From the IMG/VR virus record IMGVR_UViG_2563366963_000007: 42,685 nucleotides of DNA; one strand, written 5' to 3'. Within the stretch, counting starts at the first letter, position 1. Each line of letters begins with the position of its first letter. Both the position numbers and the translations under genes were made by a program. Positions 37,049 to 37,911 of the stretch are shown piece by piece. The notes beneath the pieces are model-generated. The model was given only the letters and a program-made list of their open reading frames with translations, ran no database searches and was not told where the DNA came from. The stretch is from a virus (taxonomy: Duplodnaviria > Heunggongvirae > Uroviricota > Caudoviricetes).

Positions 37049-37612
37049 CACTTTCATCAACAACGCTTACCCAGCGGCAGTTGTTCAGAAACACGTTCTG
37101 ACAGCCGGAAAGACGGCACCAAATTTTGCGCGTCGGCGCCAACACGGTGACAGAGGGAAAGACTTCACCGGCATATGGCACATGTGTCGAAGCGGTCTGG
37201 ATGGAAGCGGAGCCTTAACGCGTTGTCTCCATAGCAGGTAGCCGGAATGTGCAAGCCACAGCCAGGTATGAGCGATTGATTCACCATCAAGGCGATACGG
37301 TGTGACCACCAGGGAAGAGTCCTGGCTACAACACGAGAGCGCACTTCATCGACTCAACTTTGAGCTTTGTCGTTAAATTTTGAAATGGCGGAGTGCGCTC
37401 CCGGTTGTGGTGAACAGGTGTTTAACGGGAACTCCCTGCCCGTTACCCGGTTCGATTCCGGGCGCCCATCATCAATTTGCTGTGTTTAGTCTTTGCCCAG
37501 TCCGCACGATGGGCCATTTTTTCACACAGCCAGGTTTTATCGCTGTGCCTGAGTCCCCAACAGGAGAGGCCAAACCCGCAGCGTGACACCAGGGAAAGAC
37601 CGGAGGAAGTAC

Positions 37613-37629
37613 CACGCCTGACCAGCGTT
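37613..37629 (+). repeat. CUGACCA-loop hairpin, copy 3
   Basis: Plus-strand ACGC-CUGACCA-GCGU; shares the exact 13-mer CGCCTGACCAGCG with copies 1 and 2. Confidence 0.55.
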
Positions 37630-37635
37630 GACCAT

Positions 37636-37650
37636 GAGCCTGACCAGCTC
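37636..37650 (+). repeat. CUGACCA-loop hairpin, copy 4
   Basis: GAGC-CUGACCA-GCUC. Confidence 0.55.
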
Positions 37651-37670
37651 AAAACAGGAAAGACCAGCCC

Positions 37671-37685
37671 GGGCCTGACCAGCCC
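37671..37685 (+). repeat. CUGACCA-loop hairpin, copy 5
   Basis: GGGC-CUGACCA-GCCC. Confidence 0.55.
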
Positions 37686-37740
37686 TGTACGGTCGTAATG
37701 GAAACATAACGACGCCGGAAACGTAACCGGCACCCTTTAG

Positions 37741-37766
37741 ATAGCAAAAGACCCGCACAAGGCGGG
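37741..37766 (-). terminator. minus-strand intrinsic terminator-like hairpin with no cognate gene
   Basis: Minus-strand RNA CCCGC-CUUGU-GCGGG followed by UCUUUUGCUAU; the plus-strand reading has no U-tract. Confidence 0.35.
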
Positions 37767-37803
37767 CCAGTTACCCCGAACGGCGACCAAACCATTCGGA
37801 TTT

Positions 37804-37839
37804 ATCACAAGTGACCAAACTTGTGATGAGGAAAGACCA
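37804..37839 (+). repeat. 8-bp hairpin with UGACCA-containing loop fused to an orphan GAGGAAAGACCA motif
   Basis: ATCACAAG-TGACCAAA-CTTGTGAT at 37804-37827, then GAGGAAAGACCA at 37828-37839, but the nearest in-frame ATG is too far for a normal ribosome-binding-site spacing. Confidence 0.45.
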
Positions 37840-37911
37840 ACGACACTGACGCTATGGAAGCTGATCAATATTCGCTGATCGGCTCTGAGTATACATTACC
37901 AAGGAGTCGCT

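Follow-up and report, generated by a model that had tools for sequence, protein, structure and literature searches.

The 42,685-nt stretch analysed here (IMG/VR virus record IMGVR_UViG_2563366963_000007, hereafter the window) is an Escherichia coli prophage, in which about 0.86 kb separate a repressor-like gene from a 106-aa gene, the first of the early-left operon. We conclude that this gap is very probably a noncoding locus with RNAs on both strands. Whether it is in addition a cluster of noncoding RNA genes built from mobile RNA modules, convergently transcribed and with the regulation proposed below, appears evenly balanced. None of three RNAs described here, a structured RNA (S2) and an RprA-like RNA on the plus strand and an antisense small RNA (sRNA) on the minus strand, is in Rfam 15 or annotated. 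The combination, the RprA mimic and S2 are new, while the kinds of element (an sRNA in an early operon, an antisense immunity RNA, a start-associated motif) are already known. An original prediction, made from the letters alone, had offered one or more small RNAs on either strand as an explanation of this leader, and the RprA-like RNA and S2 on one strand and the covarying, terminator-ended sRNA on the other bear it out. All five structures it listed were present within a few bases of where it had placed them, and beyond chance according to the motif counts. It had missed the plus-strand intrinsic terminator at 37495–37522, which stands between the early-left promoter (PL) and the early-left genes, as well as S2 and a tRNA-like element.

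That the gap holds no credible protein gene over about 860 nt, as had been noted, was confirmed. The open reading frames (ORFs) at 37380–37586, 37477–37698 and 37854–38000 had no Pfam or PHROG match, and the small ORFs annotated or possible in relatives had lost their ATG or their frame in other lineages. A 37-aa coding sequence (CDS) annotated in phage BUCT708 and an ORF of about 45 aa overlapping the first gene were rejected as small proteins, neither being conserved. The BUCT708 CDS, a "hypothetical protein" (locus L002, 3585–3698), covers the conserved minus-strand terminator region and starts at a GGAAAGACC-ATG lost in the window; this CDS was probably called in error on top of the antisense sRNA gene. 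The window differs from most relatives by an insertion of about 32 nt (37843–37875), which duplicates CGCTATGGAAGC, the start region of the 106-aa gene (37850–61 versus 37908–19), and can also be described by its duplicated CGCUAUGGAAGC. This insertion created the 48-aa ORF at 37854–38000 and lengthened the 5' part of the antisense RNA. In a scan of the region and of short sub-windows against all Rfam families (E ≤ 10), only a sub-threshold RprA match was meaningful, and the leader RNAs were without annotation in all of the 448 E. coli genomes that bear the prophage. Loci of this kind explain the gaps that gene callers leave, or fill wrongly, in prophage immunity regions.

The only sigma-70-like match within 36100–38400 was the PL-like promoter TTGACC-17-TAAAGT at 37020–37048 on the plus strand. 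It is overlapped by an operator-like inverted repeat, TTACAA-N7-TTGTAA (37028–37046), and similar repeats are found in the divergent control region at 36425–36473. Among 53 distinct relatives, promoters and operators varied by immunity type; the shared sequence had a sharp boundary at CATCAAC, some 7 nt downstream of the −10 box. The transcription start site is therefore predicted at about 37056, and the transcript itself is the conserved object.

The minus strand carries the putative gene of the antisense sRNA, about 135 nt long (from about 37881 to 37745), with three or four hairpins and a terminator of its own. From 5' to 3' it consists of a lineage-specific 5' hairpin, the single-stranded anti-start-motif UUGGUCUUUCCUC (complement of 37826–38), hairpin H7' (37827–04, loop UUGGUC), hairpin H6b' (37799–76, loop UUUGGUCG) and an intrinsic terminator hairpin (37768–50) with its U-run at 37749–46. 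The corresponding segments S6–S7 (37736–37850) were the most conserved part, with a 27-mer identical in 40 contigs, and relatives swapped whole stems in the hairpins at 37776–99 and 37804–27. When the three-helix minus-strand structure was applied to 16 distinct sequences, 99.5% of the cells paired and ten pairs changed on both sides, against a pairing of at most 50% in slid controls. The minus strand gave 350 Watson-Crick pairs, 23 G·U pairs and 2 mismatches, compared to 350, 1 and 24 for the same positions read on the plus strand, and this 23:1 asymmetry of G·U versus A·C decides for the minus strand. The folding energy was −63.7 kcal/mol (z −6.8) on the minus strand and −49.6 kcal/mol (z −5.2) on the plus strand. 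A U-run followed the 3' hairpin on the minus strand only, and the loop of this hairpin differed in relatives (ACAAG, GCUAG, ACGCG, ACAAA), a variation that fits a terminator but would not be expected of a boxB bound by a protein. Conserved, strand-defined structure ending in a GC hairpin and a U-run was found on both strands of the leader. A candidate −10 box, TATACT (37888–37893), lies at a conserved position, being present in all 16 variants at 27–34 nt from the anti-start-motif (49 nt in the insertion type), and each lineage has its own small 5' hairpin between this box and the conserved single-stranded stretch.

The single-stranded GGUCUUUCCU was invariant, and its sense copy lacked a start codon in five of the six lineages. 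In the window, a plus-strand hairpin at 37804–37827 is fused to GAGGAAAGACC at 37828–38, with no start codon. The original prediction had recorded this hairpin with an orphan ribosome-binding motif, and a minus-strand terminator-like hairpin without cognate gene. Both are present (37804–37838, and 37750–37768 with a U-run at 37746–49), but the motif is the sense copy lying over the antisense sRNA gene and the terminator ends that same sRNA; both observations are therefore accounted for by a single RNA gene on the minus strand, of which they mark the opposite ends. In this sRNA, the UUGGUC loops and the unpaired GGUCUUUCC, which is invariant, are complementary to a start-site module made of a hairpin with a CUGACCA-type loop and GAGGAAAGACC-AUG. 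This complementarity is in two parts, both antiparallel: GGUCUUUCCUC to GAGGAAAGACC, and loop UGGUCA to loop UGACCA. In a duplex ranking, the start sites of an exonuclease-like gene and of a 136-aa gene came out on top, the start module of the exonuclease gene being the best predicted trans target. An identity of the antisense sRNA, or of the leader RNAs generally, with the published prophage sRNAs PasA–D was rejected on the probe and seed sequences of the latter.

The start-site module, a CUGACCA-loop hairpin followed by GAGGAAAGACC-AUG, precedes at least four early genes and is present in both early operons. On the plus strand the genes with starts at 38263 and 41437, and on the minus strand those with starts at 35584 and 33164, have GAGGAAAGACC-(N0-2)-AUG as their ribosome-binding region, so that a fixed motif stands right upstream of four starts in the window; two of these genes have a CUGACCA-loop hairpin 13–16 nt upstream. 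The module of the 738-aa exonuclease-like gene (38236–38265, plus; CUGACC...UGAGGAAAGACCAAUG) is 88% identical over 26 nt to 37819–37844. Those of the 74-aa and 136-aa early-right genes, both on the minus strand, lie at 35584–35623 (gcgcCUGACCAgcgu, N16, GAGGAAAGACCgAUG) and 33162–33200 (acgcCUGACCAgcgu, N13, GAGGAAAGACCaAUG), and a GAGGAAAGACC-AUG start motif at 41426–41439 (plus) belongs to the DUF4224 (excisionase-like) gene upstream of the integrase gene. The window contains 11 copies of GGAAAGAC for 1.24 expected, a count reached by none of 100 shuffles, and three occurrences of the composite GACCA-N(8-26)-GAGGAAAGACC for 0.00 expected. Ten of the 11 copies have the sense orientation of the early transcripts: the PL leader or its very end accounts for six, and four stand within early genes or ahead of them. 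The remaining one (28795, minus strand) was assigned to no transcript. The six copies of the PL leader are accompanied by three CUGACCA hairpins and are without ORFs. ORF-less copies of the module are found in the read-through segment at 37541–37685 on the plus strand, where a covarying hairpin, S5a (CGCUGUG 37541–47 with CGCAGCG 37577–83), is followed by GGGAAAGACC at 37592–601, GGAAAGACC at 37657–65 and the three tandem hairpins already noticed in the original prediction, which have an identical CUGACCA loop on different 4-bp stems (37614–28, 37636–50 and 37671–85). The leader was split into seven segments and compared with 256 fetched loci. Across these loci, GAGGAAAGACC occurred in 268 distinct contexts, with an ATG 0–1 nt downstream in 153 of them and none within 12 nt in 58. 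More than 120 viral contigs carried the hairpin-plus-motif module, in many cases with two or three copies at a locus and on both strands. Its nearest described counterpart is the start-associated sequence and its extended form (SAS/ESAS) of Cluster K mycobacteriophages, a motif including the Shine-Dalgarno sequence just upstream of many starts, often after an inverted repeat (PMC3203893). The host phylum and the sequence differ, and here ORF-less copies gather in one leader and one of them is matched by an antisense sRNA gene.

On the plus strand, the noncoding part of the PL transcript would end with segment S4 (37474–37523), which looks like the 3' domain of RprA: UUGCUGUGUUUAGUCUUU is followed by a terminator stem at 37495–37514 and a U-run at 37517–22. 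S4 aligns with the last 50 nt or so of K-12 rprA (b4431) through UUGCUGUGU-UAGUCUUUGCCC, the terminator hairpin and the U-tail. The two have UUGCUGUGUnUAGUCUUnGCCC in common, and the terminator stems covary in the phage copies. When K-12 rprA and five phage copies were aligned, all showed an unpaired UUGCUGUGUGUAGUCUUU, a GCCC...GGGC terminator and a U-tail, and 21 contiguous positions were invariant but for two variable sites. The Rfam RprA model (RF00034) gave 37.4 bits for the window and 50.2 bits for the BUCT708 homologue, both under the gathering score of 70 because the 5' 60 nt are unrelated. The single-stranded UUGCUGUGUnUAGUCUUUGCCC is nearly identical in S4 and RprA, and the terminator hairpin that precedes the U-tail is of equal size. 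S4 differs in being without the 5' 60 nt of RprA and in lying in a phage PL transcript behind a tRNA-like element, whereas RprA is encoded between ydiK and ydiL under Rcs control. RprA is naturally processed to a form made of its last 47 nt, which is active in regulation (PMC9262595). A literature search for an RprA-like RNA of this kind gave no match, and S4 would be the first case of a phage carrying the active 3' domain of this core stress sRNA. The module was present in more than 120 viral contigs and in several contexts. It was also observed after the 3' end of a real tRNA, or directly after the stop codons of phage genes (L323, L158-type and L221-type loci), where CCCCUGA stands before it, just as in RprA. 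The module therefore seems to have been captured, or to have spread, repeatedly; the matches may include host rprA in over-extended prophage calls. S4 also recalls DicF, from the dicB operon of prophage Qin, which is likewise an Hfq-type sRNA inside a repressor-controlled early operon of a defective lambdoid prophage, released by processing and with a 3' end formed by an intrinsic terminator that requires read-through to the downstream genes (PMC5069750). The sequences are unrelated, however, and S4 is located at the very start of its operon and is accompanied by other RNA modules.

Upstream of S4, segment S2 (37169–37325, plus strand) is a pseudoknotted RNA of about 155 nt with an invariant core, GGUAGCCGGAAUGUGCAAGCC, at 37237–57. 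It is composed of hairpin Pa, helix Pb, hairpin Pf (loop UUCACCA) and hairpin Pg (CCAGG-GAAGAGU-CCUGG), and the CACC of the Pf loop forms a pseudoknot with GGUG at 37299–302, covarying to AACC/GGUU. In 61 diverse sequences, 14 pairs changed on both sides, compared to 8.2 in shuffles (0 of 500 reaching the observed value) and to at most 8 in slid controls; the frequent G·U pairs point to the plus strand as the folded one. S2 matched unannotated DNA at 70–77% identity in Salmonella SPN1S-like, Enterobacter and Klebsiella phages and in the P1-like phage-plasmids D6 and SJ46, and no match to P1 itself was reported in these searches. The invariant 21-mer was present in more than 120 viral contigs and, among species-representative genomes, was almost confined to Enterobacteriaceae. 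A co-oriented tRNA directly adjoined S2 in 38 of 123 loci: tRNA-Met(CAU) about 20 nt upstream in P1-like elements, and tRNA-Arg(UCU) downstream of a long helix in others. On the P1-like phage-plasmids (D6 at L001 2333–2640, SJ46 and more than 200 plasmid records), S2 always lay about 20 nt after a tRNA-Met(CAU) gene. S2 matched no Rfam family; that database lacks this widespread structured RNA, which is associated with the tRNA operons of phages. Its likeness to RNase P RNA and to ribozyme classes was an impression only, supported by no model. The RNA-rich region of D6 that carries S2 also contained, near a tRNA cluster (L001 1457–1577), a sub-threshold match to another prophage sRNA family, STnc100 (39.6 bits for a gathering score of 47).

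A long helix of 14 bp, CGAGAGCGCACUUC / GGAGUGCGCUCCCG (37334–37403, plus strand), joins S2 to the tRNA-like element, as the same kind of helix joins S2 to a real tRNA-Arg in other phages (locus L012). The tRNA-like element (37407–37472, plus strand; folding z −3.9) has an acceptor-like stem, a hairpin resembling an anticodon arm (UAACGGG/CCCGUUA) and a canonical T-arm (CCCGG-UUCGAUU-CCGGG), with no D-arm and no CCA. It does not qualify as a tRNA: ARAGORN found no tRNA or tmRNA in the region, and the Rfam tRNA-Sec model gave 19 bits for a gathering score of 47. In one independent relative (L124), compensatory changes were seen in its T-arm, anticodon-like and acceptor-like stems, and in other phages a real tRNA occupies its position.

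The comparison of segments showed a mosaic build. The 5' leader S1 is joined directly to S4 in many relatives, giving a predicted sRNA of about 170 nt, while about 300 nt more (S2 and S3, the latter, 37334–37472, being the helix with the tRNA-like element) lie between S1 and S4 in the window and in a subset of relatives; S2 and the tRNA-like element therefore appear as inserted cargo. S2 occurred alone in 114 loci and S4 alone in 41. S1 itself (37056–37166, plus strand) has five hairpins. The first two, SL1 (37059–85) and SL2 (37085–101), are the adjacent stem-loops that had been pointed out near the transcript start, and they are real and conserved. They are followed by SL3 (37104–17, GCCG-GAAAGA-CGGC), SL4 (37128–39) and SL5 (37153–66, GAGG-GAAAGA-CUUC, with a plus-strand G·U pair in relatives). 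The stems of SL3, SL4 and SL5 covary, with GCCG/CGGC, UCUG/CAGG, CCCG/CGGG and AUUCG/CGAAU in SL3 and GAGG/CUUC, GCGG/CCGC and GCGG/CUGC in SL5, and the GAAAGA loops of SL3 and SL5 are invariant; the GGAAAGAC "motif" is thus usually a hairpin loop with its closing pair. In the predicted fold of the minimal relatives, the 5' leader CACGCGGCAG pairs with the RprA-like seed UUGCUGUGUG and closes a single sRNA of about 170 nt. Much of the PL transcription may end at the S4 terminator. In two loci (L124 and L321), a small conserved protein gene stands right behind SL3 in place of SL4, SL5 and the RNA modules, and encodes M(T/S)KK.MTD.LI.D.GI(S/T)WE.AYQYL... Either RNA or protein cargo can therefore occupy the position behind the 5' leader.

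We propose a tentative regulatory model for this anatomy, to which we give somewhat less than an even chance. The repressor-controlled PL would make a polycistronic noncoding RNA composed of S1, S2, the helix with the tRNA-like element and the RprA-like sRNA, ending at 37522. The antisense sRNA would pair with the start-site modules and block the translation of early genes, and may also bind the GAAAGA-loop hairpins SL3 and SL5 of the nascent leader, possibly favouring termination at 37522. On the firing of PL, the motif-rich convergent leader transcript would titrate or occlude the antisense sRNA, as its target or as a decoy. The tRNA-like element may direct processing by RNase P or RNase E, freeing S2 and the RprA-like sRNA, and the latter could then act on host RprA or Hfq circuits. 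If true, the model would represent a new design in phage RNA-based immunity, a dedicated antisense gene directed against a shared start motif together with a decoy leader. A broader reading, which seems rather unlikely to us, makes of the locus an RNA immunity layer independent of repressor specificity. In this broader reading the antisense sRNA would be constitutive and would silence the early genes of the resident prophage and of heteroimmune relatives that superinfect, module and leader being the same in these. Induction of PL would release a motif-rich sponge RNA lifting the block, and the same transcript would feed an RNA mimicking processed RprA into the Hfq network of the host and deliver S2, a pseudoknotted RNA class not described before, which travels with phage tRNAs across Enterobacteriaceae phages and P1-like plasmids.

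Several observations weigh against the proposed regulation. The start sites, 3' ends and processing of all the leader RNAs are predictions. The minus-strand promoter is weak, with no conserved or recognisable −35 box in the 16 variants. The CUGACCA hairpins are short and their segment shows no unusual folding energy (z +0.3). Since the start motif is invariant everywhere, co-variation of sRNA and target cannot serve as a test, and the complementarity of the antisense copy of one module to the other modules is automatic and is not independent evidence. The model gives no account of transcription past the strong terminator at 37522. A role of the RprA-like seed as a binder of GGAAAGAC is unlikely as well, the seed varying without compensation: it changes from UUU to UUG in relatives with no change in GGAAAGAC, which argues that it does not target the motif. 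Finally, a motif-binding protein accounts equally well for the repeats.

Such a protein is at the centre of one alternative, which we consider unlikely: a phage RNA-binding protein, for example the 106-aa product of 37912–38232, would read the G-GAAAGA-C hairpins and GAGGAAAGACC as boxB- or RegA-like sites and control translation or termination, the leader copies loading or titrating it. Invariant GAAAGA loops on covarying stems are the signature of a loop-specific binder, and they recall the GAAAA/GAAGA loops of lambda boxB; the motif is also found at no fewer than four start sites and in eleven places in total, in a module widespread among related phages. Yet there is no Arg-rich N-like ORF, the neighbouring proteins have no match to an RNA-binding family, and the conserved minus-strand terminator and the G·U pairs at the ORF-less copy (37804–38) would be left unexplained. 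It is still less probable that the locus is evolutionary debris, made of the start modules of deleted small genes and of passenger RNAs, with no role beyond that of a terminator stopping stray antisense transcription. The mosaic architecture, the ATG-bearing small ORFs found at the same motifs in relatives and the 32-nt insertion of the window with its duplicated CGCUAUGGAAGC agree with such an origin. It accords poorly with the high nucleotide conservation, with compensatory changes that affect ten or more helices, each on a defined strand, with an anti-start-motif that is invariant although the ATG was lost in most lineages, and with the retention of the same modules in hundreds of contigs.

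Antitermination, RNA-based or otherwise independent of N, was the other explanation offered by the original prediction, and it was not supported: the leader shows the sequence features neither of put RNA nor of an N system. The idea that S1 (SL1–SL2, possibly SL3–SL5) is a put-like processive antiterminator RNA, allowing the polymerase to read through the 37522 terminator into the early-left genes, seems improbable to us, only slightly less so than debris. It would fit the conservation of the leader from its first transcribed nucleotides across heteroimmune relatives and the presence of a strong intrinsic terminator separating the promoter from genes for which no promoter farther downstream was found; HK022 putL likewise begins just after PL (PMC9378689). 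However, put RNA is about 70 nt long with two long stem-loops, starting at about +2 of the PL transcript, while SL1 and SL2 together cover 43 nt (37059–37101) (PMC9378689). There was no putR-like second copy of the leader downstream of PR (at most 3 mismatches) and, in the phage collection, no sequence similarity to HK022-type phages. The folding energy of the leader is unremarkable (z −1.75), and in the minimal relatives leader and terminator resemble a single sRNA, its 3' seed paired to its 5' region. A six-frame scan of the whole window found no Arg-rich N-like ORF, only out-of-frame chance ORFs, in agreement with what had been noted for the leader, and an N-like protein was rejected. A nut-like reading of the 37738–37768 block was rejected too, as this block has no PR-side copy and a variable loop and pairs better on the minus strand. 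Hairpins right after PL and upstream of terminators, with purine-rich loops recalling boxB, are shared with HK022 put and lambda N-nut; a put-size fold, a second site on the PR side, boxA and an N-like protein are lacking.

For the antisense sRNA of the preferred model, the nearest precedents are the immunity RNAs of other phages. In P1/P7 c4 (a1b1/a2b2), P4 CI (seqA/seqC) and N15 CA, the targets are repeated and in two parts, with one copy over the ribosome-binding site; the outcome is a block of translation or premature termination, and tRNA-like features guide processing. The arrangement proposed here is similar in opposing a small phage RNA to a repeated two-part target with additional gene-less copies upstream. 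It differs in that those RNAs are cut from the same strand as the operon they control, whereas here a separate minus-strand gene has its own terminator, and there is no similarity in sequence or to the covariance models: the C4 and c4-a1b1 models (RF01695, RF03163) had no match in 36000–39000 even at E ≤ 10. The prophage does possess a genuine module of this class at 31357–31554 on the minus strand, upstream of the anti-repressor gene (30517–31353), with scores above threshold for C4 antisense RNA (75 bits), isrK (80) and c4-a1b1 (53). This is a P1 immI / Gifsy-1 IsrK-type module, the classical RNA-controlled anti-immunity locus before an anti-repressor, and the leader system is therefore a second and distinct one. 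With the real c4/isrK module at 31.4–31.55 kb, a c4, P4 or isrK identity of the leader RNAs was rejected. Lambda OOP and P22 sar are cis-antisense sRNAs of immunity regions. Like them, the leader sRNA is a short terminator-ended RNA directed against an early operon near the immunity region and lying over a ribosome-binding motif; unlike them, the copy it overlaps is gene-less and the complementarity extends in trans to several starts in both early operons. By analogy, we infer that the antisense sRNA may act in the manner of P1 c4, P4 CI or P22 sar.

The prophage was found in 448 of 5,426 complete E. coli genomes, mostly of the pandemic ST131 lineage, and a query of 1,051 bases was more than 99% identical in 415 complete genomes, many of them named O25b:H4-ST131. 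Facing the 142-aa HTH_3 repressor-like gene (36473–36901, plus strand), the minus strand has a YdaT-like gene and a Cro analogue that resembles YdaS. On the plus strand, the acidic 106-aa product (37912–38232), whose sole family match was PHROG 2479 of unknown function, is followed by the 738-aa exonuclease-like gene (starting at 38263), a Gp157-family gene, the DUF4224 (excisionase-like) gene and the integrase gene. An early-right gene at 32516–32752 (minus strand) matched, at E 2e-29, the PHROG family of the theta subunit of DNA polymerase III, according to its annotation, an unusual passenger for a prophage. The sequenced phages nearest to the immunity region are BUCT708 and BUCT709 (OM816834/OM816835), deposited as Stenotrophomonas maltophilia phages, a host that looks doubtful because all the other relatives are enterobacterial. 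A type I-E CRISPR array beside iap-cas in E. coli 23CRST013 contains a 32-nt spacer identical to 37601–37632 of the window (locus L257, 2509–2540), and its target has an ATG protospacer adjacent motif of functional type on the minus strand (37633–35 of the window, CAT). A mis-annotated repeat was considered and rejected; this is a genuine type I-E spacer, and it represents natural CRISPR targeting of the noncoding leader of this phage family.

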